A stretch of 64,000 bases of DNA from Candidatus Parcubacteria bacterium (GCA_016196625.1 JACPXH010000013.1:4516-68515); one strand, 5' to 3'; positions 2,481 to 53,433 are shown, counted from the first letter of the stretch. Program-made: numbers and translations. The notes: a model not told the origin generated them from the letters alone.

Positions 2481-2503
2481 TGAGGTGATTCTTAGTACAT
2501 ACC

Positions 2504-7467: not shown

Positions 7468-7530
7468 ATAATTACGAGATTGCGTTCACGATTCGATTCG
7501 TATATTTATGTCGTATTCGTATATTCGCGA

Positions 7531-9482: not shown

Positions 9483-9494
9483 GGGGACGACAAC

Positions 9495-9935: not shown

Positions 9936-10040
9936 TGATTCCAGAGTAGCAGATTCTGTGGGGCGGAACAACGATTGACAGTTTAAATGGTCTTGTGTTC
10001 TCTTCGAGGGGGCGCGCAGACCGCGCCTTATCCGCCTTCG

Positions 10041-10117
10041 TGAAACTCCACGGGCAGAGCCCGTGGTCCTCTGCGACGGCGGGCAGAAAACCGCGGGCGT
10101 AAGCCCGCGGAGCTTCA
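10041..10117. repeat. Tandem pair of REP-like hairpin elements (TGAAACTCCACGGGCagaGCCCGTGG... and CCGCGGGCgtaaGCCCGCGGAGCTTCA)
   Basis: Stems CCACGGGC/GCCCGTGG and CCGCGGGC/GCCCGCGG with AGCTTCA flanks. Related copies at 36906, 36998, 37746, 53336 and 63723. Confidence 0.6.
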
Positions 10118-10822
10118 TTTGCTTTCTGGCCCCACGAGGCGCTTCAGATCGGCATAGGTTTTCGGCAGGTCAATGCGCCGGCCATTCACGAAAAACGCCG
10201 GCACGCTCTCGACGCCTGACTTCCGTCCGCTCCGGAGATCGTCCATGATTTTTTTGCGCACGCTCGGGTCGTTGAAGTCTTTGCGAAAGCGCTGGATATC
10301 AAGGCCGAGTTCACGGGCGTACCGTTCAAATTGGACTTCGACACGCGTCGCGCTCTTCCAGTCCGATTGGCGCTCATAGAGTATTTGATAGTAATCCCAG
10401 AACCTTTCCTGTTGGCCAGCCGCTTCGGCCGCAACCGCAGCCGAGCGGGCATTGGGGTGAATGCGATCCAATGGGAAGTGCCGGTAGATAAAGCGGAAGC
10501 GCCCGCCAAAATCTTTTTCAAGCTGATTGGTCGCTTGCCAAAAATTGCGGCAGGCCGGGCACTGGAAGTCGCTATACTCGACGACCGTAACGTGCGCCTC
10601 GGTCGGACCGCGGGTCCAGTCACGCTCGGTTGGCGCAAGCGCCAAGAGTGCGGCGGCGGTCTGCCCTGCGTTAGGCTCGATACGGGAGAGGGAAAATCGC
10701 CAGATGGCCCAAGAGATTGCGACCACAATCAAAACAATGCCCAGCCACAGGGCGTATTTCTTGGCGGATTGAGGCCATTTTCCGTTTGGAGGTTGACCGG
10801 GCATCAACCTTGAGGAAACCAA
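10115..10822 (-). CDS. DsbA-like thioredoxin-fold thiol-disulfide oxidoreductase
   Basis: CxxC active site (FQCPACRNFW) in a thioredoxin-like context. N-terminal TM/signal. Confidence 0.7.
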   Translation of the reverse strand: MVSSRLMPGQPPNGKWPQSAKKYALWLGIVLIVVAISWAIWRFSLSRIEPNAGQTAAALLALAPTERDWTRGPTEAHVTVVEYSDFQCPACRNFWQATNQLEKDFGGRFRFIYRHFPLDRIHPNARSAAVAAEAAGQQERFWDYYQILYERQSDWKSATRVEVQFERYARELGLDIQRFRKDFNDPSVRKKIMDDLRSGRKSGVESVPAFFVNGRRIDLPKTYADLKRLVGPESK

Positions 10823-21481: not shown

Positions 21482-24400
21482 CTAAACAGCCGTCGGCGGC
21501 TCGATCGCTTTACCTCCGACGATGAATTTTTTGAGGAAGGTCTCGACGGTCATCTGCAGCGGTCGCTCGCGGCTGGGCGTGATTTTGAGATAGTCTTGAA
21601 CACGTCGGGCAAGCCCGCCGAAATCACGCATAGCCGGAGAGTCTTTTTCAGCGAGTAGTCTTTCCACGGTTAAGGTTTTGAGTTCGGCTAATTTACTCGA
21701 AGGCAGCTCAACGGATTTGAGCAGTTCGGAGAAAGCTCGCTGCTGGCTTCCAAAATCCGGCGAGAGGGTCAGGCGCTGGCGGGTCGCATCGAGCCGCTGC
21801 ATCTCCTCGAAGATGGCGCTCTCGCGCGCTTGGTTGTCGGCGGCGTTGTGCCACTCGTACTCAAGGCGTTGGCGGACGTCGTGGATGCGCTGGAGCACCT
21901 CTTCCTGTTTGATCAAATCCGCCTGTCTAAAGTCGCGGTGCAGCTCGTCCAGCGCGGAGGAAAATTCATCGGGTGGAGCAACGGCAATCTGCTCCACTTG
22001 TTTGGTTATTTCAGCCGAAGGAGCAATTTTCTCTTGTAGCCACTCGGGCACTTCCTTGCCCAAGCGGCGGTAGATGTCGGCCAAGTCCTTCGCCGTGCCC
22101 GTGGCAAGGCCGCTTTCCGGGATTACTTCAAAGTGCGCCGGCGCGCCTTCCGCAGCTGACACAAACTTGACCACGTCCCCGGGATGAACCAAATCAGGCA
22201 GGTGCTGGACCGATTGTTCCCACGCCGCGGCAAACTCTTTGGCCGAAATTTTGCCCTCCCCTGCACCGACCAGAGATTTCGCCGCATCCCAGACGTTGCC
22301 GCCCTGCTCGATGGTTGCGGCCGGCGCCTGAGCGATTGCTTCGGTCAACGCGCTAGGTTCCGTTGCACCGTGCCATTCGCGCATTCCGACGGCCCTGGCC
22401 GCTTCGCGGAGAGCTTCGTTTTGCTGGTCTGATAGCTTAACTGCCTGTTCGATTTCTGCTTCGCTTAAGCCGGCCGGAACAGTTGGCGGAGTTTCCTGAA
22501 ATTGTTTGATCGCTTCTTCGCCCATCCCCTCCGGCTTTCCGTATGCGGCTTCATCATGGCTCGGCGGAGACGTGGCTTCGATGTGTCGAACCTCATCGCT
22601 CAACGAGCCAGAGGCGTGGGGGCCGCGCGTCAAATCTGCTCGGTCAAAACGCATCGCCGTGAACCGTTCGCTCGTATCGTTGAAGTTTTTCCACCAGTTT
22701 TGCGCCGCAGCCTCGGCGGCGCCCGACACGCTTTTCTCGGACAATTCGTCTGTTATAGCGCCAATCCCTTTTCCCTCAAACTCTGTCAGCAGTTCCTCTA
22801 CAACCTCCACGGGCGGCCTCTCGAGCAGGGCGTTGACCGCCGCACCGCCAATGCCGTAGGCAATGGCGAGTTTGCTTGCGGCTTGGAAGAATTCGCCCGT
22901 TCGCTCCAGGCCCGTTCGGCGCCCCCGCGCTTCTTTGGATCGCAGCATCCCGCCGGTCAGACCGTGGAGCGTTTCGGCCGTGCTCGTCAAAAACAGGTCC
23001 TTTGCTTGTGCGATTCTCTTGCCCCGGAATGACGCGGAATGTTCGCCGTCCCACGCGGCTTTTTCGTACGCGCGGCCCGCCTTTGCCCATCGCTCCGCAG
23101 CCGCGGTGGCCGCGTACGCAGCGCCGCGCAGCACCGGCATCCCGCCGAGCACAAGGGCGGTATTCAGCGCTTCGCGAGCCACCTGATAGCCGGAGATTTT
23201 GGTGTTGAGGTAGAGACGCGAAAGCTTGTCGGCGCGGCTCATATCTTCTTGGCGTAACTCTTCGTCGGTCCGTTTGCGTTCGGCCATGATGCTGGCAAGG
23301 CGTTTTCGAAACTCCTTTTTTTCGTGCGCCGGGAGGTACTGCGCCTGCTCAAGCGCCTCTTTGAAACGTTTGACCGTTGGCGCCACCGCCTCGGTGTAGG
23401 CAAGGTTGTCAGGTCGGTAGAGCGCCGTTCGCTCTTCGGCTGCCCGGCGCTCGGCGCGGAGCGTATGAGCCATTTCAGCAAGTGCTGCCTGCACTTCTCG
23501 TCGCTCTCGGCGGACTTTTCCGCGTTGGCGCCCCCACGCAAAAACGTCATAGAAGAATTTCACGCCCAGGAGGGAGCCTGCGGTTTTGGCCGCGGCAGCG
23601 CCAACGTGCTTGAGCACGCCGGCCGCCACCCGACCGGCTTTGGGCCGCTCGCGGCGTCTTTCGGCAGTAGCGTCAGACGGAGGAGCAGACTCGCGCATGC
23701 TGCGGGCAAGGGCATGCACGCGGGCGAGCGCATCCGCGATCTCGGGATCTCCGGGTTGGCGCGCTTCGGCCTTGTCTGCGCCCTGTGCAGTTTCAGCCAA
23801 AACCCGTGCGCGCTCTTCTCCCTCGCTGGCCGCCTCGGTTACGGCCGCTGCGTAGTCGTAGGCTGTCTCGCCATCAGCGGCGCGACTCGGCGAGGGGGCT
23901 TGTCGTTCGACTGGTTCGGTTTGGGTGGGTTCCGGTCGTTCAGGCGTAGCTGGTGGTATCGTTTGTTGCAGCAGCGCCCAGTGACTCTCTTCCGTAGTTT
24001 GTTGTCGTTGCGTTCGGGTCGGGCCGCCGTCGTTTGGAAATTCGTCTGGATGCTGTTCCAGCAGCCGTGAGGCTTGCGTGCGCGCCTCCGCTTCAGTGAA
24101 TACCGAGAGGTCGGCATTGGCCGCAATGACCCGGCGGATTTCATCTGCTTGAGCCGACTGTTCTTCGCGCTGGAGCCGTTCGGTTCGGGTCGGGCCGCTG
24201 GTCGGGTACAGATCCGGTCGGGTGAGGAGACGCTGGATCGCTTCTGCCCGGCTCATATCAACTCCGGCCGCGCGCGCTTCTTCCACCATGCGGTGGATTT
24301 CATCCTCATCAGGCGAAAGCGCCGGCTTTTCCGGCTCTGGCCGCGCTGCGGCGTCGGCCATCGCCGCTTCGTCGGCTGCGACCGTTGTCGTCATCTCACT

Positions 24401-25903
24401 CGCAGCGCGTCTGGCAGCCTTATCCGCAGCTTCTTCTGCGTCCGGCTTTGCCGGTCTGGTTGGCGCGGTTGTCAGCTCTTCGGCCGGGGGTTGGGCGGTA
24501 CCGGCACGGTGTCGCGCCCGCGCGCGGCGAAGCGAGTCTTCGTCCCAAGCCAGATCGCCTTCATCATAAACACGTCCACCCCTTGCCTTTCTTTGATTGC
24601 GCTGTTTTTGTGGTCTGGTTTCGTCTGCGGCCGGTGCTGGCGTTTCCGCTTCGATCGTCGTGAGAACATCCGGCTCTTTTTCTGCTAAGTCGTACGCTTC
24701 CCATTGACTGATGCCGTGCTGTTGAGCTAGACGGTTTACCAGTTCCCAGTGGTGGCGGGTCTGCTCATAGTTGCGGACGTTTGACGGGGCAGGCGGCGCT
24801 TCGCCTGGCTCAGGAGTCGGAGGTGGCGCCGGTTCGGGTTTTGGCTCTGGCGCGGGGGGCGTTTCCGGACCGGCGATTTGCTTGACGGCGTTCAATGAGT
24901 AGTAATGGATAATGTGCTCGCGCGCGGCACGCTCATCTCCGTTTGCGGTGCGCCCGGCCAAGGACCGTATTTCATTTTGGAGCTGCGCCGATTGCTCCGG
25001 CGTGAGCCCTTGGAGGAATGTTTCAATTTCGGTCTGCAGTTCGGGCGGATTTTCCGGATACTCGCGTTTTCCCCGGCGTTGTTCGGCAGGCGCAGGAGCG
25101 GGCGGGCTGACTACGCGCTCGCGCGACCAGTCCGGATAGCGGCGCAAAATCAAAAGACTCGCCTCACGGATCATTTGGGCGCGGTTTTCCGGCGTTACCG
25201 GTATTTCGTGGTTACTCAAAAAGATCTCTGCTTCTTTTTCAAGGAGTGCCTGTGTGTCTGTCGGCAGATTCGCAAGATCGCTCAAGGCATTCTCGAGCGC
25301 AGCTTTTTCCTCCGGAGTTTTGGGCGGGGCCGTCAGTTCAGCAAAAGTTTTCTCCCAGCGCTTTGGTCGTCGCGGCGCGGGAGTGGGCACTGGCTTTTCA
25401 CCGGAAGTCTCCGTGGCGGCAGGGGTTGGTTCGGCAGGCGGAGCTTCTCGGCCAGCCGCGTCGCTTGTCTCTTCGATTTCGGCAGCGTCAGCAGCCGGGG
25501 TACCTTCAGTTGTCTCAATCACGGCCGGGGATGGTAATGGCTCCACGGGTAGTCCGCGGGGCACGCTCCCCGCCCGCCGCGCGCGCCGGGTGTCTGGCTC
25601 TTCGTCAGGCTGACCCCCTATCTCTGGTGAGTCCTTTGCTCTTGGCGGGGGCGGAACGGTTTCGGCACGCTGGAGGAATTTAAGCCGTCTGTCGAGCGCC
25701 ATGAGCTTTATTTTCGCCTCGGGCCTTTCAAGAACGCCGAGCGCCTCGACTCTCCGCATTGCCTCCTCGTACGCTTCCTGCTCTTCGGGCAGGAAAGTTT
25801 CCCCGTTGTTGTTGCGCTTGGCTTCTTCGTAGGCAAACTTAATGAAATCGGCCAACGCCTGTTCATGACTTTCAGTCCACGGGTTTGGGATTTCTCTCGA
25901 CAT
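21482..25903 (-). CDS. Giant Ala/Glu/Pro/Arg-rich low-complexity protein (1473 aa from the ATG at 25901-25903), function unknown
   Basis: Single long ORF. Pro-rich linkers (PAPEPKPEPAPPPTPEPGEAPPAP) and predicted coiled-coil/helical acidic stretches. No signal peptide at MSREIPNPW. The listed start at 26044 would overlap the upstream gene. Confidence 0.65.
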   Translation of the reverse strand: MSREIPNPWTESHEQALADFIKFAYEEAKRNNNGETFLPEEQEAYEEAMRRVEALGVLERPEAKIKLMALDRRLKFLQRAETVPPPPRAKDSPEIGGQPDEEPDTRRARRAGSVPRGLPVEPLPSPAVIETTEGTPAADAAEIEETSDAAGREAPPAEPTPAATETSGEKPVPTPAPRRPKRWEKTFAELTAPPKTPEEKAALENALSDLANLPTDTQALLEKEAEIFLSNHEIPVTPENRAQMIREASLLILRRYPDWSRERVVSPPAPAPAEQRRGKREYPENPPELQTEIETFLQGLTPEQSAQLQNEIRSLAGRTANGDERAAREHIIHYYSLNAVKQIAGPETPPAPEPKPEPAPPPTPEPGEAPPAPSNVRNYEQTRHHWELVNRLAQQHGISQWEAYDLAEKEPDVLTTIEAETPAPAADETRPQKQRNQRKARGGRVYDEGDLAWDEDSLRRARARHRAGTAQPPAEELTTAPTRPAKPDAEEAADKAARRAASEMTTTVAADEAAMADAAARPEPEKPALSPDEDEIHRMVEEARAAGVDMSRAEAIQRLLTRPDLYPTSGPTRTERLQREEQSAQADEIRRVIAANADLSVFTEAEARTQASRLLEQHPDEFPNDGGPTRTQRQQTTEESHWALLQQTIPPATPERPEPTQTEPVERQAPSPSRAADGETAYDYAAAVTEAASEGEERARVLAETAQGADKAEARQPGDPEIADALARVHALARSMRESAPPSDATAERRRERPKAGRVAAGVLKHVGAAAAKTAGSLLGVKFFYDVFAWGRQRGKVRRERREVQAALAEMAHTLRAERRAAEERTALYRPDNLAYTEAVAPTVKRFKEALEQAQYLPAHEKKEFRKRLASIMAERKRTDEELRQEDMSRADKLSRLYLNTKISGYQVAREALNTALVLGGMPVLRGAAYAATAAAERWAKAGRAYEKAAWDGEHSASFRGKRIAQAKDLFLTSTAETLHGLTGGMLRSKEARGRRTGLERTGEFFQAASKLAIAYGIGGAAVNALLERPPVEVVEELLTEFEGKGIGAITDELSEKSVSGAAEAAAQNWWKNFNDTSERFTAMRFDRADLTRGPHASGSLSDEVRHIEATSPPSHDEAAYGKPEGMGEEAIKQFQETPPTVPAGLSEAEIEQAVKLSDQQNEALREAARAVGMREWHGATEPSALTEAIAQAPAATIEQGGNVWDAAKSLVGAGEGKISAKEFAAAWEQSVQHLPDLVHPGDVVKFVSAAEGAPAHFEVIPESGLATGTAKDLADIYRRLGKEVPEWLQEKIAPSAEITKQVEQIAVAPPDEFSSALDELHRDFRQADLIKQEEVLQRIHDVRQRLEYEWHNAADNQARESAIFEEMQRLDATRQRLTLSPDFGSQQRAFSELLKSVELPSSKLAELKTLTVERLLAEKDSPAMRDFGGLARRVQDYLKITPSRERPLQMTVETFLKKFIVGGKAIEPPTAV

Positions 25904-25920
25904 GATCGTGCTGATTGCGG

Positions 25921-26250
25921 TTACCTGTCTCTCCGTTCCTTCAACGCTCGCTCCAGTTCGGAAACTGCGGAGGTTGCTTGCTCGTTTATCTGTTTCTCGC
26001 GAGCACTGCGCTCCGCGGCGAATTGCCTCAACCGTTCCAACCACTGCGCATCAATAGCGGCTGTGGCTGCGTCCAACACTCGTTTCTCGAGTAAGTCAGA
26101 GAAACGCATAAGCTGTTCCGGGGTCATCTCGGGCAGCATGGCGAGCCACGCCTGCTTTTCGTCTTCCGGCAAGGGGGCCGTAGCCAACAGGAGGCCGAGC
26201 TTCCTGCCGAGCAAGCCAGCAAGGGTTTGGACTTTTTCAACGCTTGGCAT
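25921..26250 (-). CDS. Coiled-coil hypothetical protein (109 aa)
   Basis: ATG at 26248-26250 (MPSVEKVQTLAG...). Stop lies 17 nt before the giant-gene start. Confidence 0.4.
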   Translation of the reverse strand: MPSVEKVQTLAGLLGRKLGLLLATAPLPEDEKQAWLAMLPEMTPEQLMRFSDLLEKRVLDAATAAIDAQWLERLRQFAAERSAREKQINEQATSAVSELERALKERRDR

Positions 26251-26866
26251 TGAATACGAAAATTTTAAAGCCAAGAAAATTCCCGGCGAGAGCCAGTATT
26301 GTTCCGGCGAGGTTTGCGACGTTGAGCCACTGTGTCGCCGTGAGTCCCGTAGGCGGGCTCGCAAAATGGGTGATGGCAGAAACTAATAGTGCTGCCAAGA
26401 GCGAGCTCGTGAGCGTAACGGCAGAAAACTGTAGATATTGCACTGGTGCCGCGCGCGCTGCAGTTGCATTGAAGGTCCAGTTTTTGTTCCACAAGAAGCT
26501 ATGGGTGTTCGCGATGACAAAGGCCATAACAACGAACACCCCTGCGCCGAGCCCTTGCGTGACGCCAGTGAGGTGTGCGAGGAAATTGAGGATGGCAAAA
26601 CTCAAGAGCGTATTGACCACTCCAATCAGGCCATACTTAGCGAACTGGTAGAGTGTCGGTAGCTGTCGGGTGAGCACTGCCGCAAACCATAGGCCAACTG
26701 GTGCGGCGATCCCCACCACCAGCCACAGCCACGGCAGGAAAGAGCGCACGAGCGAATTACCCACGCTAGCACTCGTGAGCACGTACCACGCGAGGAGTCC
26801 CGCGGCGACTCCGATCACTGTGGCATTCAACGCATCGTGTGCGGCAAGCTTTGGGGTCATTGACAA
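26237..26866 (-). CDS. GtrA-family membrane protein
   Basis: YGLIGVVNTLLSFAILNFL ... SFLWNKNWTFN, the GtrA signature. Confidence 0.7.
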   Translation of the reverse strand: MSMTPKLAAHDALNATVIGVAAGLLAWYVLTSASVGNSLVRSFLPWLWLVVGIAAPVGLWFAAVLTRQLPTLYQFAKYGLIGVVNTLLSFAILNFLAHLTGVTQGLGAGVFVVMAFVIANTHSFLWNKNWTFNATAARAAPVQYLQFSAVTLTSSLLAALLVSAITHFASPPTGLTATQWLNVANLAGTILALAGNFLGFKIFVFNAKR

Positions 26867-26955: not shown

Positions 26956-27207
26956 ATGTCTGGTGATGAAGTCGGGAGGGCTCGCGACCTTGATCCTTTC
27001 GAACAATACCTGTGCGCATTTCGGGATTCTGTGGCGTCACGTCCGCGGCTGTCCGGGCGCATCCTATCCGTCTCTCTTCGGGAAAATGTCGTCGTGGTGC
27101 GGCTGTCCGACGGACGCGACGCACTCATCCCGCTGGTGATGCGCCCCGACGGGGTCGTGGCGCACGAGGGAGTGCAGGTGTTCCCGCCGCGGGCGGCTGG
27201 GGCGTAA
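26956..27207 (+). CDS. Hypothetical small protein (83 aa)
   Basis: Strong SD AGGAGGTGAAGA before the ATG. Confidence 0.5.
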   Translation: MSGDEVGRARDLDPFEQYLCAFRDSVASRPRLSGRILSVSLRENVVVVRLSDGRDALIPLVMRPDGVVAHEGVQVFPPRAAGA

Positions 27208-28036
27208 GCCCAAGGCCGCCCGTTTTCTTACGCGCAAACTCTTCGACAAAGGCGTCGATGCTGGCGATGGCGTCAGTGCACGCGTGCTGGATCGGGATTT
27301 CGTGAACGTGGGGGTGACTCTGGATTTGTTTCTGGAGCGAGCGTCGGATTTCGGCGATGAACTGTGCGGCTAGCCTGGCGCGTTCGCTCTGGCCGAGGTA
27401 GTCGGCCGGCGACTGTTCGCGGCTGTGACCCTCCCATTCGGTTATGACTCGATCGAGAATGGCGGCATCCGGTTCGAAGAGCGCGAGCGGCGTCACGCTG
27501 CCGTCGGCATTCCTCACGAACGCTTGCTCCTCAACGCGCCCTTCTTTTTCAGCGCGGAAATGCGCAGGGCTGATAGGTTCTGGGCGCAGCGGGTCACGTC
27601 TGCGCGTGAACATCTGTACGGCAACGCCACGTTCCCCCGGAACGGGGAGGAAGAAAAAATCCGCCTGAGCTTTCCCGACGGGGTTTTCATCGGCGTGAGG
27701 TTTGCGGCGGTCAATGCTCAACGGCGCATCGACAATGTGATCCCGGCCCAAGGTTTTCGCGAGCGCGGCCTCGACAAGCTCTTCGGCAACGTCGCCAAAC
27801 TCTTTTTTATATTCAATGGTCAGCAGGTCTTTTTTCGCCCGAGCGCGCTCCGTGGCGGCTTGAACCGATTTTTCCACGCCGGTCTCTAAAAGGAGTTTGA
27901 CCTCGCGGTCAATCCTCGCCGTGAGTCTCGGGTCGTCCGGCGAACGGGGTTGCGGCAATTCGAATGGATTGGTTGTGGACATCGGGTCTGGCGCGGCTCT
28001 CAAGGATGGATATACGATACCAGTACAGTATAGCAC
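27125..28036 (-). CDS. Hypothetical protein (303 aa)
   Basis: Long ORF with no motif. Its 3' end overlaps the convergent 26956-27207 gene by 83 nt, so one end may be mis-called. Confidence 0.45.
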   Translation of the reverse strand: MLYCTGIVYPSLRAAPDPMSTTNPFELPQPRSPDDPRLTARIDREVKLLLETGVEKSVQAATERARAKKDLLTIEYKKEFGDVAEELVEAALAKTLGRDHIVDAPLSIDRRKPHADENPVGKAQADFFFLPVPGERGVAVQMFTRRRDPLRPEPISPAHFRAEKEGRVEEQAFVRNADGSVTPLALFEPDAAILDRVITEWEGHSREQSPADYLGQSERARLAAQFIAEIRRSLQKQIQSHPHVHEIPIQHACTDAIASIDAFVEEFARKKTGGLGLTPQPPAAGTPALPRAPRPRRGASPAG

Positions 28037-28075
28037 GGCTCAGGCACTGAACTTTCCACAAGGGAGGGGAAGGCC

Positions 28076-28288
28076 ATGGAGCTCTTAGTCCGGCCGGAGA
28101 CGACCCAAGAGGCGGAGTTGCGCAATGCGGTTGGGTTTGAGGCGGCCCGCGAGATTTGTCCGTACTTGTGGCGGATCTTGCCCGTGACGACGGAGGATGG
28201 CGCGTGGCTCGTTGAAACGGTCTGTGCGCTTGACCCGCAAGCGCCAGGCGCCGCAAACGGATGGGCACAGCAGCAGGAAGCTGCCTGA
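28076..28288 (+). CDS. Hypothetical small protein (70 aa)
   Basis: SD AAGGGAGGGGAAGG before the ATG. Confidence 0.45.
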   Translation: MELLVRPETTQEAELRNAVGFEAAREICPYLWRILPVTTEDGAWLVETVCALDPQAPGAANGWAQQQEAA

Positions 28289-28299
28289 AGGGAGGTGCG

Positions 28300-28533
28300 A
28301 TGGCGGATGGCGACGTTCGTGTTCGGGAAAGCCCTTTTCGTAGTCCTTACCGCGATCGCGGTGGGGATAGTCGCGAGGGCTATCGGACGTGCCTTGGGGC
28401 CTGCGGCCAGTCATTTTGGTCACAGGGGCCGGAGAACCGTTTCTGCCCCTCGTGCGACCCGAAACGTAGGCGCGCGTCTGCATCTGTTATTCCCGACTGT
28501 CCGGTGGCGTTGAAGCGTCTGCGTCGGCAGTGA
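28300..28533 (+). CDS. Small Cys-rich zinc-ribbon-like protein (77 aa)
   Basis: SD GGGAGGTG before the ATG at 28300. CLGACGQSF...CPSCD. Confidence 0.4.
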   Translation: MADGDVRVRESPFRSPYRDRGGDSREGYRTCLGACGQSFWSQGPENRFCPSCDPKRRRASASVIPDCPVALKRLRRQ

Positions 28534-28593
28534 GCTCGGCCCGGTCTCTCCAGACCGGGCCGATTCTTGTTTCGAAAATTTTCACTTTTCCCC

Positions 28594-31020
28594 TTACCGC
28601 CCGGTCCCCTGCTCTGTGGGTGGAGCTGTGGTGAGCGCGGGCATTTGGGAAAGTCGGGTCCGAACTTCTTGTTCGACCGCCGCGCGGTCCCGGCCGTATA
28701 TTGAGCTCGACCACTGCCGAACTGCGTGTGCCGCCGCCGGATCCCCTTTGCGCGGCAGGTTGATCACAAAGTTAAAGGGCGAAGTGGTTTTGCCTTGAGA
28801 CATGAGCCGCGCGTAGGCGTTGAAGTTATCAAGGTTGATGAGATCAGATGCGGCAAAGGCCGGCGCAAACTGGGGTTCGATGGATTCGGCGTCTTCCACT
28901 CCCACCCGAAACGAAACCAAGGATCCCACGTTGCCGAAGACCGCGTTTTTGATTTCGTCCGTGAGTTGTTTGATGAATTGATGCGCGAGCGTGAGATTGA
29001 GCCGGTACTTGCGTGCTTCGGACAGGATTGTCGCAATGGACGGGGTCGCGAAGCTCTGGAATTCGTCCAAGTAGAGGTAAAAATCGGACCGCGCCTCCTC
29101 GGCTGCGTCGGTTCGGCTCAAAGCCGCCAAAAGCAGTTTGCCCACGAGAATCAGGCCAAGGAGGGAGCTGTTGAGTTCGCCCAGACGCCCTTTGGTGAGG
29201 TTAACGAGGAGAATCTTGCGTTCGTCCATCACTTGGCGAAAATTAAATGAGCTTTGCTCTTGGGCGATGATGGGGCGCATGATGTCGTTGGCAATGAACA
29301 GGTTCATCTTTGAAGTGATGTAGGGCACCATGTTCGCGAGCGCCGCTTCCCCGCCGGCTTTCTCCGCCTCCAGCTCCCAGAAATTCTTGATTACCATGTT
29401 CGTCGTGCGTGAGAGTTTCAACTTGCGAAACTCTTTATCCGCGAGCACCCGCGGGATTTCCAGGAGCGTATTGCCGGAGGCAGGATCTTCCATGACCAGC
29501 AGCACGGCGTTGCGCATGTATTGTTCAAACATGGGCCCGCCGGTAACTTTCAGATCGTAGAGCTTGTCAAAAATGGCGATGAGTTCATTCGCGATGAAGG
29601 TTTTCTGCTCGGGGTGCGCCGGGTCATATTCAAGCATGTTAAGCCCGAGGGGCCGTTCGATGTCGCCCGGGTTGAAATAGATTACTTCTTCCCGGCGGCT
29701 CGCGGGCACGAGTCCGAGGAGGTCGTCGGCCAAATCTCCGTGCGGGTCTATAAGCGCAAGGCCCTCTCCGGCCTCAATGTCTTGACGCGCGAGTTCTTTG
29801 ATGAGCGACGATTTGCCGGTTCCAGTTTGGCCTATAATATAGAGGTGTCTCCGGCGGTCTTCGCGCGCGATACGGATTACGGTTTCTCTGCCCCGAAAGA
29901 CGTTGCGCCCCAACATCAGACCTTCAAGGGGAAGGTTGAGCGGCGGCTCGGCCTGACGGGCTTTGAGCGCGTGCAGTTTGGGTGCTTCGAGCGAGGGGGT
30001 CGCAAAGTGATACATGCTACTCAACTCATCGGCACTCAAGATAAGCGCATCGCGTGAACGAAAGAGACGCCATGAAAACGCAAAGAGAAGCGACTCCAAC
30101 CGGCCGCCCTTGCGCCGCTTAAATGAGAGCGAGTTGGTCGGGGGAGCGCTCAAGGGGGCAAAGGCGGTTTCCATCTGTTCGAGCAGCGCTTTCGCCCGAG
30201 TCTCTTCTGCCGCCGAGGCCACCACCCGAACATTGGCTGCAAAGACGGGCGTGCGGGCCTTGCGCTCGATGGCCTCCACCGCTTCGGGGTCAACGGGTTC
30301 GTTCTTGCTTTCGCCGGGGCCTCGGGTCGAGTTTGCTTTGAGCTTTTGGGCTTGGGCCACGCTTTCGGCGCCCCAGCGTTTGGGAGCGGGTTGGAGCAGA
30401 ATTTGGATGGCCGCACCCTCCCCTTCTTTGGCAATTTTGCTTAAGGCCGTGGCAATCGCGCTTAAGGGATCCACTTCAAGCTCACGGAAGGTGCGCAGCG
30501 ACAGGCGGCTGTTTTTGACCTCAAGGATTGAGGCTTCGTGTCTGCCGTGGGGATTGAACAGGTTATAGTCCGGTACCGCCTCGATTACGGCTTCCGGGAA
30601 AAAGCCGTGGATGTGTTTTTCGAACGCTTCAGCCAGCCGCCTCGGGAAGGCCGCGAAAAACTGAATTTCCTCGCCCACATGGGGGACGGCCAGTTCAAAG
30701 GCAACCGTGGGCATCCCCCGGAGGATCGCCCGCCACCACTTCTCTTTTAGAAACGTCAGGCTCGCGTAGAACTGACTCATGACGGCGAGCCCCTCGCGCA
30801 TTCGTTCCACTGCCGATCGATCCGACTCCAGGGGACGGTTCGGAAGCGCAATCGCGAAGAGGGCGAGGTTCAGGGCGCGCGCGGTCTCCCCTCGGCGTCG
30901 GAGCGTAACTAAACCCCAAGCCGCCGCAGTGCCGCCCACCGTAAGGACGGCGAGGGTTATGAGGATGAGCCAGAGGAGGAAAGAGAGATCGAGGGGCACG
31001 GTCAAAAGTTCAAATGCCAA
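28594..31020 (-). CDS. Membrane-anchored VirB4/TraG/HerA-like P-loop NTPase (AAA_10/DUF87-type)
   Basis: Two N-terminal TM helices. Walker A GQTGTGKSS followed by LIDPHGDL, Walker B FYLYLDEFQ, then LTLAHQ. TTG start at 31018-31020 lies inside an AT-rich heptad leader. Confidence 0.55.
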   Translation of the reverse strand: MAFELLTVPLDLSFLLWLILITLAVLTVGGTAAAWGLVTLRRRGETARALNLALFAIALPNRPLESDRSAVERMREGLAVMSQFYASLTFLKEKWWRAILRGMPTVAFELAVPHVGEEIQFFAAFPRRLAEAFEKHIHGFFPEAVIEAVPDYNLFNPHGRHEASILEVKNSRLSLRTFRELEVDPLSAIATALSKIAKEGEGAAIQILLQPAPKRWGAESVAQAQKLKANSTRGPGESKNEPVDPEAVEAIERKARTPVFAANVRVVASAAEETRAKALLEQMETAFAPLSAPPTNSLSFKRRKGGRLESLLFAFSWRLFRSRDALILSADELSSMYHFATPSLEAPKLHALKARQAEPPLNLPLEGLMLGRNVFRGRETVIRIAREDRRRHLYIIGQTGTGKSSLIKELARQDIEAGEGLALIDPHGDLADDLLGLVPASRREEVIYFNPGDIERPLGLNMLEYDPAHPEQKTFIANELIAIFDKLYDLKVTGGPMFEQYMRNAVLLVMEDPASGNTLLEIPRVLADKEFRKLKLSRTTNMVIKNFWELEAEKAGGEAALANMVPYITSKMNLFIANDIMRPIIAQEQSSFNFRQVMDERKILLVNLTKGRLGELNSSLLGLILVGKLLLAALSRTDAAEEARSDFYLYLDEFQSFATPSIATILSEARKYRLNLTLAHQFIKQLTDEIKNAVFGNVGSLVSFRVGVEDAESIEPQFAPAFAASDLINLDNFNAYARLMSQGKTTSPFNFVINLPRKGDPAAAHAVRQWSSSIYGRDRAAVEQEVRTRLSQMPALTTAPPTEQGTGR

Positions 31021-31088: not shown

Positions 31089-31487
31089 CTAAATTGGTTT
31101 CAGTTTTCCCCTGCTCACTAAATCGTTGTACAGGTGGTCCACGAGAGCATCGTGGAAAGCGTCAATGAGGCGCGCGTTGTGCGAGGCCTTGACCGCGCCA
31201 ATGGCTTGCCCCAAGCCTTTGAGGAACGCGACGTCAACGAGCTCTTGCACCTTCAGTGCTTCTTCTTGGGCGGTCGGAGCGCCCCCGGACGCTTGGCCAG
31301 TGGTTGGAGGTACGGTGATGTTTGGCGGCGGGACCGCGCCCGCGATTTTTTCGCCGACGTATTCGCGAATCGTTGCTCGCTCCGATTCCGGTTCGCGCTG
31401 TTCAGAGAGCGTCTGCTTGCGCTCCGCGAGGCGCTCCTCAAGCTCCCGGATTTCTGATTCAAGCTGATGAGGGGTTTCGTAGGGCAT
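31089..31487 (-). CDS. Coiled-coil hypothetical protein (132 aa)
   Basis: ATG at 31485-31487 (MPYETPHQLESEIRELEERL...) directly follows a heptad-repeat leader. Confidence 0.45.
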   Translation of the reverse strand: MPYETPHQLESEIRELEERLAERKQTLSEQREPESERATIREYVGEKIAGAVPPPNITVPPTTGQASGGAPTAQEEALKVQELVDVAFLKGLGQAIGAVKASHNARLIDAFHDALVDHLYNDLVSRGKLKPI

Positions 31488-31551
31488 ATCTCGAAATGAC
31501 AAATGCCAAAATCCAAATGTCAAATGCAAAATCAAACAGCGCTACAGTATA

Positions 31552-31806
31552 TCACCCTTCGATTTTCAGAGATTTGTATTTTCGTACAATGCGCATGATG
31601 GCTAGTGGGATGTAAAAGACGGGAAAGACGTATGACACCACTCCAACCGCAAGGTACGGGAGGTTAATTCGAAACAAGCCGATGTCGTACGGCGCCACAG
31701 TATCGGGATATATGGAAGCAACTACCAATAGTAAAACCGCAGGTCCCTCAATCGCCATGAAGGTCCCCGCAAGTTTCCCGATGTAGCGCCTCAGGCGCGG
31801 GTCCAT
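31552..31806 (-). CDS. Small membrane protein (84 aa)
   Basis: Two hydrophobic helices. Confidence 0.35.
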   Translation of the reverse strand: MDPRLRRYIGKLAGTFMAIEGPAVLLLVVASIYPDTVAPYDIGLFRINLPYLAVGVVSYVFPVFYIPLAIMRIVRKYKSLKIEG

Positions 31807-31999
31807 GATTGCTTAGTCTAGCACAGTCCGGGGCCTCGACTTACTTTAATTTATCCACACGGCGGCATGCAGGAGCGTGCTAGACTGGAAGCGGAAAAAC
31901 TCCTTTTTGGATCGTACGGGATTGCTTCGCCCGCCTCCGCCAGTTGGCGGATGGCGGGCTCGCAATGACGGCCGACAGCGGCTCTCGCTGAACTCTATT

Positions 32000-33694
32000 A
32001 TGGATAAGCGCCAACGAACTTGGATTTTCCTTGGCATCATTCTTGTAGTTGCCATCTTTTTTCGCTTCTGGCAGTTTACCGAATTTCCTCCCGGGTTGTA
32101 TCCGGACGAGGCGGTCAATGGCGTAAATGGTCTCCAAGCGGTTGAGACCGGCAACTATCAAGTTTTCTACCCGGACAACAACGGCCGCGAGGGGCTGTGG
32201 ATGAACGTGCAGGGATTAGTCTCAAAGGCGCTCGGCCCTTCGCCCTGGGCTCTGCGGGTGCCCAGCATGGTGATAGGCGTGCTCACGGTTCTCGGCCTTT
32301 TCTTATTAGTGCGCGAGCTAGTCGGCGACGAGGTGGCTTTGGTTTCGGCAGCGCTGCTGGCGACTTCCTTTTGGCACACGGTGTTTTCCCGCATGGCCTT
32401 CCGGGCCATTCTATTGCCGTTCGTGCTTACCTATCTTTTCTACTTTTTGGTTCGGGGATTGAAACGCGGGCGCGGATCAGATTTTGTCGGAGCCGGTTTT
32501 TTCTTCGGGCTGGGTTTTCACACCTATATTTCTTACCGGATCGTGCCGCTGCTGCTGGTTGCGCTGTTCGGCGTACTCATTTGGTTAAAGCGGCGCAAGG
32601 TTTGGCAGCCAATATTCTGCGCGCCGTGTGCGGTTAGTCTTATGCTGATTGTGGGGCTTGTGGTGGCAACTCCCATGCTTCTTTATTTGATTCAGCACCC
32701 GGAAGATTGGAGCGGTCGGACCGGCGGCATTTCTGTCTGGAGCGCGCAAAGTCCTCTCAAGGCCGTTCTCATCTCCACGGCCGCAACATTAGGGCAGTTT
32801 AACGTGCTCGGGGATCGCAACTGGCGGCATAACTTCCCCGGCCGGCCGGAGCTGTTTTGGCCCGCCGGGATTATGATGCTGGTAGGGCTTGCGATAACGT
32901 TTCGGACAGCGTTCCGAATATTCCGCGCAAAGCCAGCCGCGCCACCCTCGGAGGAAACCGTTCGGCCATGCCACTCTAATATACTAGTATATGATAGTGG
33001 AAACGGCTGGCTCGTCATTTTCGGGGCGTGGCTCATGCTCGGATGGTTCTTTGCCTTGATGGTGCCGGCGATTCTCACGCGCGAAGGCCTGCCCCATGCG
33101 CTGCGCACCATCGGCACTATCCCGCCCGCGTACGCGTTTGCCGGGGTTGGCACGTGGCTCACGTGGAAGGCGTTGCGGCGCAAGGTTCTCGGTGGGCTCG
33201 AAGGATTTTTGGAACGCGATCCGAATCTGGAGTTTCTGCGATCCAGATTGAACCGTATTCGGCGGTGGTTCGGGGTGCTGCTCGCGACTTTTCTTCTGTG
33301 GGTGGCGGGCAGCGAAGGGGTTACGTACTTTGTGCGTTGGGCGCCCCACCCGCGCGTGGCCGACGCTTTTGCGGCTCACCAGACCGAGCTCGCCAACTAC
33401 ATCAACGCCGCGGAGCCCGACATTTCGATCTACGTGGTGGTTAACGCCCCCAGTCTCAACGTCAACGGCATCTCGCTCAACGCCCAACCCCTCGTGTATC
33501 TGAATCACGGCCGGCCCAACTTGTTTTTCGTAACTCCAGAGACCATCGGTTCGATCCCCCGCGATCTGCATCGGGCCGAGATTATCCTGCTCGATTCGGA
33601 TCGGCAGTTTCTGGCCCAACTCCAGCGTGAGCGTTATCCCCAAGGAAAGACCAAGGCAGTCTCGGGGACGATCGTGCCGTTGGTGATTCCGTAA
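32000..33694 (+). CDS. Glycosyltransferase family 39 (ArnT/PMT-like) polytopic membrane protein
   Basis: N-terminal loop motif GLYPDEAVNGVNG (DE motif) after the first TM, with many TM helices. ATG at 32000. Confidence 0.7.
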   Translation: MDKRQRTWIFLGIILVVAIFFRFWQFTEFPPGLYPDEAVNGVNGLQAVETGNYQVFYPDNNGREGLWMNVQGLVSKALGPSPWALRVPSMVIGVLTVLGLFLLVRELVGDEVALVSAALLATSFWHTVFSRMAFRAILLPFVLTYLFYFLVRGLKRGRGSDFVGAGFFFGLGFHTYISYRIVPLLLVALFGVLIWLKRRKVWQPIFCAPCAVSLMLIVGLVVATPMLLYLIQHPEDWSGRTGGISVWSAQSPLKAVLISTAATLGQFNVLGDRNWRHNFPGRPELFWPAGIMMLVGLAITFRTAFRIFRAKPAAPPSEETVRPCHSNILVYDSGNGWLVIFGAWLMLGWFFALMVPAILTREGLPHALRTIGTIPPAYAFAGVGTWLTWKALRRKVLGGLEGFLERDPNLEFLRSRLNRIRRWFGVLLATFLLWVAGSEGVTYFVRWAPHPRVADAFAAHQTELANYINAAEPDISIYVVVNAPSLNVNGISLNAQPLVYLNHGRPNLFFVTPETIGSIPRDLHRAEIILLDSDRQFLAQLQRERYPQGKTKAVSGTIVPLVIP

Positions 33695-33821
33695 GTTCAA
33701 AGTTCAAAGTTCAAATTTCAAAGCTCAAATGTCAAATCCAAAGCCCAAATGCCGAAGCGATTTTGGATTTTGAACTTTAAGTTTGATTTGAAATTTGGAT
33801 TTTGTCATTTGGATTTCAGGT
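33695..33821. repeat. AT-rich heptad repeats in palindromic arrangement ((GTTCAAA)3 TTTCAAA GCTCAAA TGTCAAA ... then the inverse TTTTGGATTTTGAACTTTAAGTTTGATTTG...)
   Basis: Tandem 7-mers read directly. The right half is a leader for the downstream GT39 gene. Confidence 0.6.
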
Positions 33822-35729
33822 ATGACCGCTTCATCAGTACGCCACAATATATCCATTACGGGTTGGGCGTTCGTCATCCTCGCCCTCATGTTCGTCCTGA
33901 TGTTTGCGTCAGCGTGGGACGACACGCTTACCTTCGACGAAATCGCCCATATCCCCGCCGGATACAGCTACCTCACGAGAGCCGATATGCGGCTAAATCC
34001 CGAACACCCGCCACTCCTTAAAGACTGGGCCGCACTCCCGCTTCTTGCCGCCGGCCTCAAGTTCCCGGCAGACAATCCGGGCTGGAAAGATGACGTGAAT
34101 GGGCAATGGACGTTCGGGTACGGATTTATCTATTTTGCGGGGAACAACCCCGATGTAATCCGGCACTTGGCGCGAATTCCGATGATGGTTCTCACCGTAG
34201 GGCTGGGAGCACTCTTGTTTTGGTGGACGAGACGCCGCTATGGGCAGGTTGCCGCGTTCACGGCGCTGGTATTGTTTGCGCTTTCGCCCAACTTCATTGC
34301 TCACGGTCGCTACGTTACCACTGACGTGGGCGCTTCGTTTGGATTTTTAGTCGCCATCATCGCCTTCATTCGCTTTCTGGAAGAGCCGACTTCAAAGCGA
34401 CGTTTGGTGCTGGCGGGTTTTGCGTATGGGTTTGCCCAACTGCTTAAGTTTTCCGCCTTTTTGCTTGGGCCGCTGTTTGTGGCGCTCACGGTTCTTTACA
34501 TCGTTCTGGAGAGCGACGCGGGCTTCTGGTCTATGGTGCGCCGGTACTTGGGCGCGCTCATTGCCATTTTTGCCATCGGCTACGCGTTCGTCTGGGCGGT
34601 GTATGTATTTCATACTGCGGGCTACCCTCCCGCCCGTCAAGCTCACGACATGGCCGCAGAACTATATAACTACGCCGGCGGTCCGTCCTCACCCGCCTTT
34701 GCCGTGTGCAATCCGGCTCTCGTGGGACTTAAACGCTTTGCGCGCTGTCCGGCTGAAATCGGAATCTGGATGGCAGACAAGCCCGTTTTGCGCGCCTTGG
34801 CGCACTATCTCAAAGGAGTGCTGATGGTCTTCCAGCGTTCAGCCGGCGGTAACACTACGTACTTCTGGGGGCAAGTTTCCGCGGCCGGGTGGCGGTCCTA
34901 CTTTCCCGCGATCTATGTGCTCAAAGAGACTCTGCCGGCGTTGATTCTGGCTTTCTTGGCCTTAGCGTATGCGCTCGCCCGGAGCATTCGGAGCATGACG
35001 CGCGAAGCCCATTGTTTTAAACGGTCTCTGCGCTGGTTGCGCGAGCACCCAGCCGAGACTGCCATGAGCGCTTTTGTTGCGTTTTATTGGTTGACCAGCA
35101 TCCGTTCAAACCTGAACATCGGCTTCAGGCACATCCTGCCAACGCTGCCTTTTATCTACATTTTGACCGCGCGCCAAATTGCCCTTTGGCTTAAGCCGGT
35201 TATTCAATCGGGCGGCCAGATGCCTTGGCGCACGCTCGCAAATTTTGCCAAAGGGTATGGAACGGTGCTGCGTAAATCAGTACTACTCGGGGTGTTCATG
35301 CTGTGGCAGGCGGTCAATACCTTTGCAATTTTTCCGTCGTACCTTGCCCATTTCAACGAGTTGGCCGGCGGACCTGCCAGCGGCTACAAGTGGGCGGTGG
35401 ACTCAAACTTGGACTGGGGTCAGGACCTGAAACGCTTGGGCGACTGGCTTGAAGTCAATAACATCCCCAAGATAAAACTGGATTATTTTGGTGGCGGCGT
35501 GCCCGAGTACTATCTGGGCGATCGATACGAAAAGCTTCGCTGCGACGACAAAGCGTGTGCGGCCCCAACGTCCGGCTGGGTGGCGGTTTCGGCTACGCTT
35601 TTACAGGGTGGGCGCGGCATGGCCGCGGCCGGTTATGACAAGCGAACCGACTACTACCGCTGGCTTGAGCGCTACGAGCCGCCGGTGGCCAAGATCGGGT
35701 ATTCGATTTTCGTGTATCGGATTCAATAG
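33822..35729 (+). CDS. Glycosyltransferase family 39 (ArnT/PMT-like), second copy
   Basis: DDTLTFDEIAHIPAGYSYL with many TM helices. ATG at 33822. Confidence 0.7.
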   Translation: MTASSVRHNISITGWAFVILALMFVLMFASAWDDTLTFDEIAHIPAGYSYLTRADMRLNPEHPPLLKDWAALPLLAAGLKFPADNPGWKDDVNGQWTFGYGFIYFAGNNPDVIRHLARIPMMVLTVGLGALLFWWTRRRYGQVAAFTALVLFALSPNFIAHGRYVTTDVGASFGFLVAIIAFIRFLEEPTSKRRLVLAGFAYGFAQLLKFSAFLLGPLFVALTVLYIVLESDAGFWSMVRRYLGALIAIFAIGYAFVWAVYVFHTAGYPPARQAHDMAAELYNYAGGPSSPAFAVCNPALVGLKRFARCPAEIGIWMADKPVLRALAHYLKGVLMVFQRSAGGNTTYFWGQVSAAGWRSYFPAIYVLKETLPALILAFLALAYALARSIRSMTREAHCFKRSLRWLREHPAETAMSAFVAFYWLTSIRSNLNIGFRHILPTLPFIYILTARQIALWLKPVIQSGGQMPWRTLANFAKGYGTVLRKSVLLGVFMLWQAVNTFAIFPSYLAHFNELAGGPASGYKWAVDSNLDWGQDLKRLGDWLEVNNIPKIKLDYFGGGVPEYYLGDRYEKLRCDDKACAAPTSGWVAVSATLLQGGRGMAAAGYDKRTDYYRWLERYEPPVAKIGYSIFVYRIQ

Positions 35730-53176: not shown

Positions 53177-53335
53177 CTTATTGGCTACCCGCCGTCGCAG
53201 AGGGCCATGGGCTCTGTCCGTGGGTGAATGCGCGGTTGGTATTCCGGGTGGGGTTGAGGGGGGTATATTCCTTGAGGCTGTGGCGGATGACGCTGCAGCC
53301 CGCTTGGATTCGCCCGAAAGGCGAATAGCGGGCTG

Positions 53336-53361
53336 CCACGGGCTCCGCCCGTGGAGCTTCA
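53336..53361. repeat. REP-like hairpin CCACGGGctccgCCCGTGGAGCTTCA
   Basis: Family member. Confidence 0.5.
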
Positions 53362-53433
53362 CTTCGGTGGGCATCGTCGTGAGGAGCTGGGTAAATCCGC
53401 GTTCGCCTCGGCTGGGGGAAATGCGGGTCATGG

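Follow-up and report, generated by a model that had tools for sequence, protein, structure and literature searches.

Why would a Candidatus Parcubacteria bacterium keep a large pumping ATPase in an ordinary stretch of chromosome, with no conjugation or secretion gene beside it? The question is raised by an 808-amino-acid (aa) open reading frame (ORF) on the minus strand, at 28594-31020 of a 64,000-nucleotide stretch of DNA (GCA_016196625.1 JACPXH010000013.1:4516-68515; the whole stretch is called the window here). An earlier reading of the sequence, the original prediction, had placed the protein among the pumping ATPases of the VirB4, type IV coupling protein or HerA type. It had named a coiled-coil protein and several other neighbours as possible partners, and had suggested a minimal or novel translocation module, perhaps linked to a pilin or to competence. 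The superfamily call is correct. We find that the ATPase is a type IV coupling protein (T4CP) and belongs to a subfamily of monoderm conjugative coupling proteins with a VirB4-like N-terminal domain (N-domain). Together with the coiled-coil gene, cc148, it makes up a vertically inherited, chromosomal two-gene module of Patescibacteria that comes without a relaxase. Taken as a whole, the original prediction is partly confirmed in its observations and partly supported in its interpretation. The features on which the argument rests are the following.

31089..31487, minus strand: partner gene cc148 (NCBI HYZ80_03165), 132 aa from ATG; conserved linkage
28594..31020, minus strand: gene for the 808-aa DUF8128-type T4CP ATPase; ORF call, Pfam and AlphaFold (AF2)
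30901..30984, minus strand: predicted single N-terminal transmembrane (TM) helix, residues ~13-40, then RRRGE; Kyte-Doolittle and AF2
30013..30867, minus strand: N-terminal alpha/beta domain, Pfam DUF8128 (PF26449), residues 52-336
28741..29919, minus strand: T4CP-type nucleotide-binding domain, residues 368-760; Foldseek, PDB profile and Pfam
29806..29832, minus strand: Walker A motif GQTGTGKSS, residues 397-405
29266..29607, minus strand: all-alpha insertion, equivalent of the T4CP all-alpha domain, residues 472-585
29056..29079, minus strand: Walker B motif YLYLDEFQ, residues 648-655

The 808-aa ORF is present as claimed, starts with TTG, and its product is a 100% match to an NCBI protein of Candidatus Parcubacteria bacterium (P0001). 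The four motifs of the original prediction (GQTGTGKSS, DPHGD at residues 425-429, YLYLDEFQ and LTLAHQ at residues 676-681) are all found where it had located them. Their columns are invariant or almost so in an alignment of 40 homologues, in which residues G397, Q398, T399, G400, T401, G402 and K403 of Walker A and D652, E653, F654 and Q655 of Walker B do not vary.

A full-length AF2 model (pLDDT 85) divides the ATPase into four parts: a membrane helix, an alpha/beta domain (52-336), a RecA-like core (368-760) and two C-terminal helices. Where two N-terminal TM helices had been claimed, the Kyte-Doolittle profile contains one hydrophobic segment, and AF2 builds it as one continuous helix from residue 12 to 50; the anchor is modelled as a single TM helix with a short N-terminus outside. 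Within the core, seven helices lie between the strands at 446-449 and 603-607 and form the all-alpha insertion. Foldseek aligned the motor with TrwB of R388 (TM-score 0.62-0.65 normalised to TrwB, root-mean-square deviation about 4.6 Å, 17-18% identity). The best E-values for the whole model went not to TrwB but to full-length TrwK/VirB4 (5.5e-15), because both domains align with it. The N-domain was therefore modelled separately (pLDDT 84, pTM 0.84). Its significant Foldseek matches in the PDB were 14 TrwK/VirB4 chains only (E 1.5e-6 to 2.7e-4; TMq about 0.5, 0.53 for the best; ~390 aligned columns), all others being at noise level. The DUF8128 N-domain is thus predicted to adopt the fold of the VirB4 N-terminal domain. 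PF26449 itself, a model of a newer Pfam release, comes from precomputed annotation, which places it at the N-terminus of P0001 and of all 120 listed homologues. The ATPase is a VirB4-type N-domain joined to a coupling-protein-type motor, and the earlier hesitation between "VirB4 or coupling protein" reflects just this pairing of a motor that is T4CP-like in sequence and fold with an N-domain of VirB4-type fold. Some coupling proteins, then, retain a VirB4-type N-domain, which bears on the divergence of the two type IV secretion system (T4SS) ATPases.

In an effort to assign the family, the ATPase was compared with profiles for VirB4, TraG/VirD4 and HerA, as the original prediction had proposed, and the motor profiles favour a T4CP. 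The Pfam T4CP-type matches are weak though above cut-off: TrwB_AAD_bind scores 27.1 bits (cut-off 20.5) with an alignment that covers residues 385-688, and T4SS-DNA_transf scores 21.4 bits (cut-off 20.1). A TraG-D_C match lies near its cut-off. NCBIfam returned TraD-type matches below threshold only, and the TraD and CD1115 equivalogs fall so far below their cut-offs that the ATPase stands outside those specific subfamilies. Against PDB sequences the best relative is TrwB, both for the single sequence (1e-6, with a weak HerA match as well) and for a family profile (6e-8, followed by DotL at 2e-4); the family profile matched no VirB4. Of the AAA_10/DUF87 signature seen earlier, the DUF87 half stands (27.8 bits, above cut-off, although it spans only residues 389-465 around Walker A), whereas the AAA_10 half does not, there being no Pfam match to AAA_10, nor to CagE_TrbE_VirB or TraC.

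Relatives in conjugative plasmids place the family more closely. A tblastn search of plasmids recovered full-length homologues, N-domain included, from Streptomyces and Embleya at 26-30% identity (E down to 8e-51; the best match has 27% identity over 85% of the query). In Bacillus plasmids the identity is 24%, over 83% of the query; further homologues occur in haloarchaeal and Sulfolobus plasmids. In the B. subtilis plasmid NZ_CP032854.1 the homologue (WP_121549396.1; BLASTP 24% identity over 709 residues, E 3e-39) is the first gene of a conjugation operon; the genes directly after it encode a Replic_Relax relaxase, TcpE and a distinct AAA_10 VirB4. It has an acidic tail and no TM segment. The Embleya plasmid homologue (WP_331738717.1) has a VirB4 on one side and a Replic_Relax relaxase on the other, and genes for PrgI, TrbL_4 and an NlpC/P60 hydrolase are close by. 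We built N-domain and motor hidden Markov models (HMMs) from the Patescibacteria family and ran them on the ATPases of these two operons. The proteins in the T4CP position were matched strongly by the N-domain HMM (Bacillus 2e-20, Embleya 5e-12) and by the motor HMM (2e-41 and 2e-66), whereas the VirB4s of the same operons gave 0.46 (Bacillus) and no hit (Embleya) with the former and 0.3 and 3e-5 with the latter. This separation identifies the family as a subfamily of monoderm conjugative T4CPs. The window protein shares with these relaxase-linked T4CPs a full-length DUF8128-like N-domain and a T4CP motor. The settings differ: on the plasmids the genes belong to conjugation operons that also encode a relaxase, a VirB4, TcpE or PrgI, and VirB6-like proteins, whereas the gene in the window is on a chromosome, lacks all of these as neighbours and has an upstream partner specific to Patescibacteria.

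Set against better-known coupling proteins, the ATPase has in common with TrwB, VirD4 and DotL a Walker A/B motor with an all-alpha insertion and an anchor at the N-terminus. Coupling proteins of the TrwB/VirD4 type usually have two TM helices. The window protein differs from them in its one predicted TM helix, in an extra VirB4-like domain of ~290 residues between that helix and the motor, and in the lack of linkage to a relaxase or T4SS. Neither was found among the 48 window ORFs scanned (most of those of at least 150 aa) or, in a search of uncertain sensitivity, within 8 kb of the gene in 85 related loci. The same 48 ORFs contain no VirB6, VirB8 or VirB4, in agreement with the original prediction, which had seen no VirB6, VirB8 or relaxase; nor do the window scans and the related loci show the VirB3, VirB6 and VirB8 genes that accompany a VirB4.

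That the ATPase is instead a VirB4, the core assembly ATPase of a T4SS, or a VirB3-VirB4-like fusion, has only a slim chance of being right. Its size of ~800 residues and two-domain layout are those of TrwK/VirB4 (R388; PDB 7o41-7o43, 8rtb, 8rtd), the whole-model and N-domain fold comparisons lead to VirB4, and the small upstream gene, fused to it in some lineages, recalls VirB3-VirB4. The sequence, however, points elsewhere: identity to TrwK/VirB4 is 6-11%, the VirB4-type Pfam families fail to match a motor that is T4CP-like, the family profile retrieves T4CPs from the PDB, and in two conjugation operons the family HMMs strongly pick out the protein in T4CP position over the VirB4. Patescibacteria moreover own a separate, monophyletic VirB4 besides this family (SEML1_0008 in Southlakia), and cc148 has no TM segment, unlike VirB3. 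Still weaker is the case for a housekeeping DNA translocase of the FtsK/SpoIIIE or HerA type, which would account for the common superfamily, the DUF87 and weak HerA matches and the division and cell-wall genes close by in several classes, but is scarcely credible for a protein with no Pfam match to FtsK_SpoIIIE (PF01580), FtsK gamma (PF09397) or 4TM (PF13491), a DUF87 match confined to the surroundings of Walker A, a VirB4-like alpha/beta N-domain in the model where a HAS barrel would be expected in HerA, no NurA or other nuclease neighbour in the window ORF scans, and a true FtsK beside it in Southlakia. The FtsK fragment that the original prediction had named as the outcome that would overturn it was thus not found.

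The coiled-coil protein is the only conserved partner of the ATPase. Its ORF extends beyond the ATG to a TTG at 31535 (31089-31535, minus strand), and its product, a fast-evolving protein, consists of an N-terminal coiled coil, a variable linker and a C-terminal helical domain of ~65 residues, with no TM segment. Iterated searches were made at the 73 loci with enough upstream DNA. In 68 of them a cc148 homologue is directly upstream of the ATPase on the same strand or fused to it, so that the coiled-coil neighbour holds up as a partner, and the neighbourhood check proposed earlier, with lack of a conserved neighbourhood as its adverse outcome, leaves the cc148 linkage in place. The in-frame fusion is seen in 26 loci (fused ORFs of 911-969 aa, for example L048:7593-10328). 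At the junction the first DUF8128 strand follows directly on the C-terminal helical domain of cc148, with no membrane helix between them: a TM segment is absent from 25 of the 26 fused proteins and present in 57 of 59 unfused homologues. Neither single cc148 sequences nor a 52-sequence profile matched Pfam or the PDB, and a word-index search with cc148 found just 13 close relatives. In Levybacteria, Kuenenbacteria and Saccharimonadia-type loci a small gene occupies the same position, but no homology to cc148 could be detected in it (hhalign probability 0.6% for the Saccharimonadia type).

VirB3 and CagZ are small partners of T4SS ATPases, VirB4 and Cagbeta respectively, and offer an analogy. 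As in those pairs, a small protein is encoded beside the ATPase and in some lineages fused to its N-terminus; unlike them, cc148 has neither a TM segment nor similarity to any known family. The structural comparison entry tied to the CagZ-Cagbeta analogy in the Foldseek listing is PDB 8dol.

The family is large. More than 6,600 significant relatives came up in a word-index search with the ATPase; the best 120 are ~50% identical and come from many Parcubacteria lineages. An exhaustive search of representatives clustered at 50% identity gave 22,011 matches with E-values of 1e-3 or lower, of which 5,715 have E-values of 1e-30 or lower. Members with DUF8128 also occur in Levybacteria, Magasanikbacteria, Kuenenbacteria and Kerfeldbacteria. 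The family is moreover already catalogued, as Pfam DUF8128, under an NCBI name, and as part of the counts of a 2025 survey (PMC12102498). For the gene context we sampled 85 loci, 80 of them from species-representative genomes. The fused clade has Ndk, MetAP, adenylate kinase and L20 as neighbours. The ATPase homologues of other classes are preceded, at a distance of 2-10 bp, by a gene of 154-186 aa without a Pfam match, and their surroundings are once more of the housekeeping kind (PBP2, CorA/CysRS, dnaX and ftsW/murG).

Some members depart from the usual architecture. In one (P0222, 959 aa) the same motor follows an N-terminal response-regulator receiver domain in place of DUF8128. A Nomurabacteria locus (L064) encodes, ~3.7 kb upstream of its fused gene, a 496-aa motor-only paralogue (2309-3799, plus strand; motor HMM 2e-106) with no N-domain. 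Other motor-only proteins, P0219-P0269, were considered as a second Patescibacteria paralogue near T4SS genes, an idea that gained no support, since the single context obtained (P0302, motor-only and different in architecture from P0222, with a sigma-54 activator and a PEP-CTERM protein) is from a non-Patescibacteria genome. The longest members (P0165-P0177; 1,400-2,000 aa) have disordered C-terminal tails of 600-1,200 residues without a Pfam domain; the tails were inspected in all but P0172 (1,267 aa). Most are rich in Pro, Ala, Val and Gly and contain short recurring motifs (PPPIGAPPVDLP, SITDITGGK, GDPYANIDILG and YIHFVDP) with the look of linear docking motifs; that of P0169 is rich in Ser, Gln and Pro. 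In Saccharimonadia-type members the tail is ~250 residues long.

By gene order, published data on Southlakia connect the module to essential genes. Wang et al. 2023 (PMC10633639) described a Southlakia T4SS that lacks recognisable coupling and relaxase proteins. Their transposon-sequencing (Tn-seq) table lists two T4CP-like genes. One, SEML1_0293 (921 aa), is non-essential. The other, SEML1_0142, encodes a 1,019-aa "TraM recognition domain-containing protein" with a P-loop domain at 381-800 and is essential at all three time points (ES/ES/ES), class I. Just 13 bp upstream of it lies SEML1_0141, a hypothetical protein of 139 aa that is also essential, with zero insertions in the T0-T2 outgrowth samples. 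The T4SS genes SEML1_0005-0010 are essential and class II, and SEML1_0011 is ES/ES/ES. In the same organism SEML1_0096 is a canonical, essential FtsK and SEML1_0008 a VirB4 in its own right; comEC, comF and dprA are non-essential there, and a comEC deletion is viable.

A metagenome scan with P0203, a member of the DUF8128 family that is heavily sampled and has a C-terminal tail, recovered 80 loci. Their gene order runs L20 - L35 - IF3 - YifB (minus strand), then a 120-aa TM protein, a ~160-aa Pfam-less protein, the TM-DUF8128-T4CP gene (850-1,150 aa), gyrB and gyrA. In 47 of 48 loci gyrB is at most 3 kb downstream, and in all 55 the TM protein is upstream. SEML1_0135-0146 have the same order save for two inserted genes. 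In one of the recovered loci, L105, the T4CP (7001-10237) can be aligned with the window ATPase all the way from the membrane helix to the C-terminal helices (35% identity, E 2e-149), and both family HMMs match it (1e-56 and 7.5e-149). From the shared gene order and this full-length alignment we conclude that the essential SEML1_0142 is very probably the orthologue of the window family, and SEML1_0293, the "non-essential t4cp", a different paralogue. SEML1_0141 and SEML1_0142 resemble the window pair in that a Pfam-less gene of ~140 aa precedes, by 13 bp, a T4CP-like gene whose P-loop domain is at ~381-800; they differ in the ~200-residue tail of SEML1_0142 and in the small partner, whose type has no homology to cc148 that the hhalign comparison given above could detect.

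As a side observation, the 120-aa multi-TM protein that precedes the small partner gene in these Saccharimonadia-type loci (55 of 55 among L093-L172; for example L105:6159-6518) holds the position of SEML1_0140, which is annotated as a DUF2178 protein and for which Tn-seq shows a growth defect. Paceibacteria have no conserved counterpart.

The 2025 survey (PMC12102498) provides the wider frame. It counts 5,713 T4CP-profile hits, which are spread over 2,918 Patescibacteria genomes and lie near virB4 in only 148 cases, and reports VirB4 in 2,417 of 3,035 genomes; patescibacterial VirB4 is monophyletic there, and the T4SS is held to descend from monoderm conjugation systems. By these counts more genomes have a T4CP than a VirB4, and some therefore seemingly keep a T4CP-like gene without a T4SS. 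The T4CP count merges the profiles t4cp1 and t4cp2 (Table S3) and may include FtsK-like proteins; with two profiles pooled, the figure of about two per genome is not readable as two coupling proteins. The survey calls a Southlakia "t4cp homologue" non-essential and suggests that it might be exapted. Neither the genome of the window nor the SEML1 locus tags occur in the searched part of its supplement table. A literature search for DUF8128 found nothing. In the literature searched we likewise found no account of DUF8128 as having a VirB4-type fold, of the family as one of the relaxase-linked monoderm T4CPs, of a conserved partner that takes the place of the membrane anchor where it is fused, or of the synteny link to the essential Southlakia gene pair.

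What, then, does the ATPase do? Its most likely function, which we put forward tentatively, is that of the substrate-feeding motor of the patescibacterial T4SS, because this T4SS descends from monoderm conjugation systems and has no T4CP in its own locus. In Southlakia the T4SS genes and the positional orthologue SEML1_0142, together with SEML1_0141, are all essential, which argues for the same function; by extension we infer that the ATPase would be essential in the window's organism. The N-domain, which matches only TrwK/VirB4 in the PDB, may supply a docking surface; the N-terminal domain of VirB4 contacts VirB3 and VirB8. In such a mechanism the ATPase would assemble as a hexameric ring at the membrane, with its VirB4-like N-domain docked on the inner-membrane platform of a patescibacterial T4SS of the mating-pair-formation (MPF) FATA type that is encoded elsewhere. 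ATP hydrolysis would drive the recruitment of substrates and their feeding into the T4SS channel. These substrates would more likely be proteins than DNA, because a relaxase is absent. The partner cc148 may bind beside the N-domain where the membrane helix emerges and act as an adaptor or regulator, the fusion junction implying that it sits at the membrane-proximal end of that domain.

Several points weigh against a T4SS motor. The membrane anchor is missing in about 30% of the species sampled. T4CP-bearing genomes outnumber those with VirB4 in the 2025 survey, in a census that mixes t4cp1 and t4cp2 and does not separate paralogues. SEML1_0142 is class I, whereas SEML1_0005-0010 of the T4SS are class II, and its orthology to the window family is based on synteny and size. 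The flanking genes are of the housekeeping kind in every class examined (dnaX, gyrB/gyrA, ftsW/murG, PBP2, a POTRA protein). No T4SS gene lies within the 64-kb window (48 ORFs scanned), and two plasmid VirB4 queries found no VirB4-like ORF within 8 kb in the 85 loci, in a search of uncertain sensitivity.

The main rival, a serious possibility if a doubtful one, is that the ATPase is an exapted motor, essential and independent of any T4SS. In this case a captured conjugation ATPase and its partner would have taken over a core cellular task, such as DNA or protein handling at the membrane during replication or division. The gene is near-universal, vertically inherited and always found among housekeeping genes (tRNA synthetases included), and very highly conserved, at ~50% identity across Parcubacteria and 35% over its full length to the Saccharimonadia-type orthologue. 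The excess of T4CP-profile genomes over VirB4 genomes and the split between a class I SEML1_0142 and mostly class II T4SS genes also speak for exaptation, as does its having been raised by the survey's authors (PMC12102498). A further argument is that 26 fused lineages can dispense with the membrane helix, but this is weakened because soluble T4CPs occur in real conjugation operons, as the Bacillus plasmid homologue without a TM segment demonstrates. Nor does any neighbour point to a candidate process or substrate, and septal chromosome pumping is already covered by the essential, canonical FtsK SEML1_0096. The parts used for T4SS docking and substrate recognition, the VirB4-like N-domain and the all-alpha domain, have been retained with many invariant residues. 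A bolder form of the idea, in which the DUF8128-type ATPase and its partner are an essential, Patescibacteria-wide domesticated conjugation motor with no need of a T4SS, one that keeps a VirB4-like N-domain and serves a core process of these minimal cells, and a living intermediate between VirB4 and T4CP, is in our judgement unlikely.

Far less probable is a DNA-uptake motor that pulls DNA through ComEC for transformation or nucleotide scavenging, like ComFA of Firmicutes or CedB of archaea. The competence link suggested by the original prediction would gain from an NCBIfam similarity to CedB and CedD that is faint and scores far under the cut-offs, from the com genes listed as conserved in the Candidate Phyla Radiation (ComEC, DprA and ComFC, without ComFA), and from one Kuenenbacteria locus in which a pilM/N/O cluster adjoins the gene. 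It is disfavoured by Southlakia, where comEC, comF and dprA are dispensable and the positional orthologue SEML1_0142 is essential, and also by the fused lineages without a membrane anchor and the lack of any conserved com or pilus linkage in the 85 loci and the 80 of the second scan.

The reading as T4SS motor, which we prefer, bears on a large share of bacterial diversity. Patescibacteria are host-dependent, and the T4SS is essential in the one tractable species; the ATPase family is the obvious candidate for its missing motor. The essential pair SEML1_0141/0142 is not discussed in the literature, where the "non-essential" homologue cited is the other paralogue. With the other partners of the original prediction removed, ATPase and cc148 form a two-protein target for depletion and interaction work. 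If the ATPase acts without a T4SS, it would represent a new essential process in minimal cells.

The remaining neighbours fall outside this module. The window features that concern them are these.

31877-33694 and 33795-35729, plus strand: PMT_2 (GT-C) glycosyltransferases, flanking the module
31552-31806, minus strand: 84-aa ORF with two TM segments; ORF call
28536-28563, no strand assigned: GC-rich hairpin with a 12-bp stem; terminator scan
28261-28533, plus strand: zinc-ribbon ORF, CxxxC...CxxC; ORF call
28076-28288, plus strand: 70-aa ORF with a Shine-Dalgarno (SD)-like sequence; ORF call
27125-28036, minus strand: 303-aa Pfam-less protein; ORF call
26956-27207, plus strand: 83-aa ORF with a strong SD sequence; ORF call
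26237-26866, minus strand: GtrA-family protein, flanking the module
21482-26044, minus strand: 1520-aa ORF, no Pfam or NCBIfam match
52634-53431, minus strand: type IV pilin-like gene, N_methyl motif at residues 99-122; window scan

The neighbours named in the original prediction all exist: the coiled-coil ORF, the 84-aa two-TM ORF and the small plus-strand ORFs, among them the zinc ribbon. Three of the small genes had been credited with strong SD sequences, and SD-like sequences were found before two, at 28076 and 26956. The 303-aa ORF had been called convergent; it is on the same strand as the ATPase, and only the small plus-strand ORFs converge on it. Between the stops of the ATPase and the zinc-ribbon ORF, the hairpin at 28536-28563 is likely a bidirectional terminator.

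That the ATPase, the 303-aa, zinc-ribbon and 84-aa proteins and the small SD-bearing genes make up a new minimal translocation system is, despite their closeness in the window and the SD-like sequences before two of them, refuted at the level of conservation and hardly worth entertaining otherwise, since among the 85 loci homologues of the 303-aa and zinc-ribbon proteins occur in the closest relative (L004) only and those of the 70-aa, 84-aa and 1520-aa proteins in none, most relatives have other genes (in some GtrA) directly 3' of the ATPase, a strong terminator hairpin divides the transcription units, and no small TM protein is conserved before the partner gene in Paceibacteria. Of the minimal or novel module first proposed, what is left is cc148 beside an ATPase whose family is large and already catalogued. 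The region from 26956 to 28533, between the ATPase and GtrA, is a lineage-specific insertion, and of its genes only those for the 303-aa and zinc-ribbon proteins recur, in L004.

Two further sets of candidates were rejected. The 84-aa TM protein was considered as a conserved third component and has no homologue in the 85 loci. GtrA and PMT_2 were considered as functional partners, and GtrA is directly downstream in just 12 of 74 loci; in other clades its place is taken by Ndk, MetAP, gyrB or PBP2. The synteny of GtrA and the two PMT_2 genes is kept in one Parcubacteria subclade, as is that of DnaX, and the GtrA and PMT_2 proteins plausibly form a unit for flipping and transferring polyprenyl-linked sugars, independent of the ATPase. 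In ten loci (L013, L019, L020 and seven more) a convergent gene just downstream of the ATPase encodes a protein of ~810 aa. It has a TM segment; its cytoplasmic N-terminal domain is conserved, and its C-terminal region resembles a beta-propeller.

Otherwise the window is that of an ordinary Parcubacteria chromosome, with PriA, Def, Fmt, glycosyltransferases, DnaX, a Nudix protein, a POTRA-sized protein, SerRS, a class II tRNA synthetase (tRNA-synt_2, D/K/N type), GreA, PBP2, MreC, MreB, RseP and one tRNA. The link to a pilin is not borne out: the pilin-like gene is ~21.6 kb from the ATPase and the linkage is not conserved. Its N_methyl motif lies at residues 99-122 of the ORF as called, and the true start is therefore probably further downstream. 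The 1520-aa protein has low-complexity stretches rich in Pro, Glu and Ala, with hydrophobic stretches mid-protein, and is not similar to the long tails of P0165-P0177. In one relative (L002) a different Pfam-less protein, of 1145 aa, is encoded upstream of the module.

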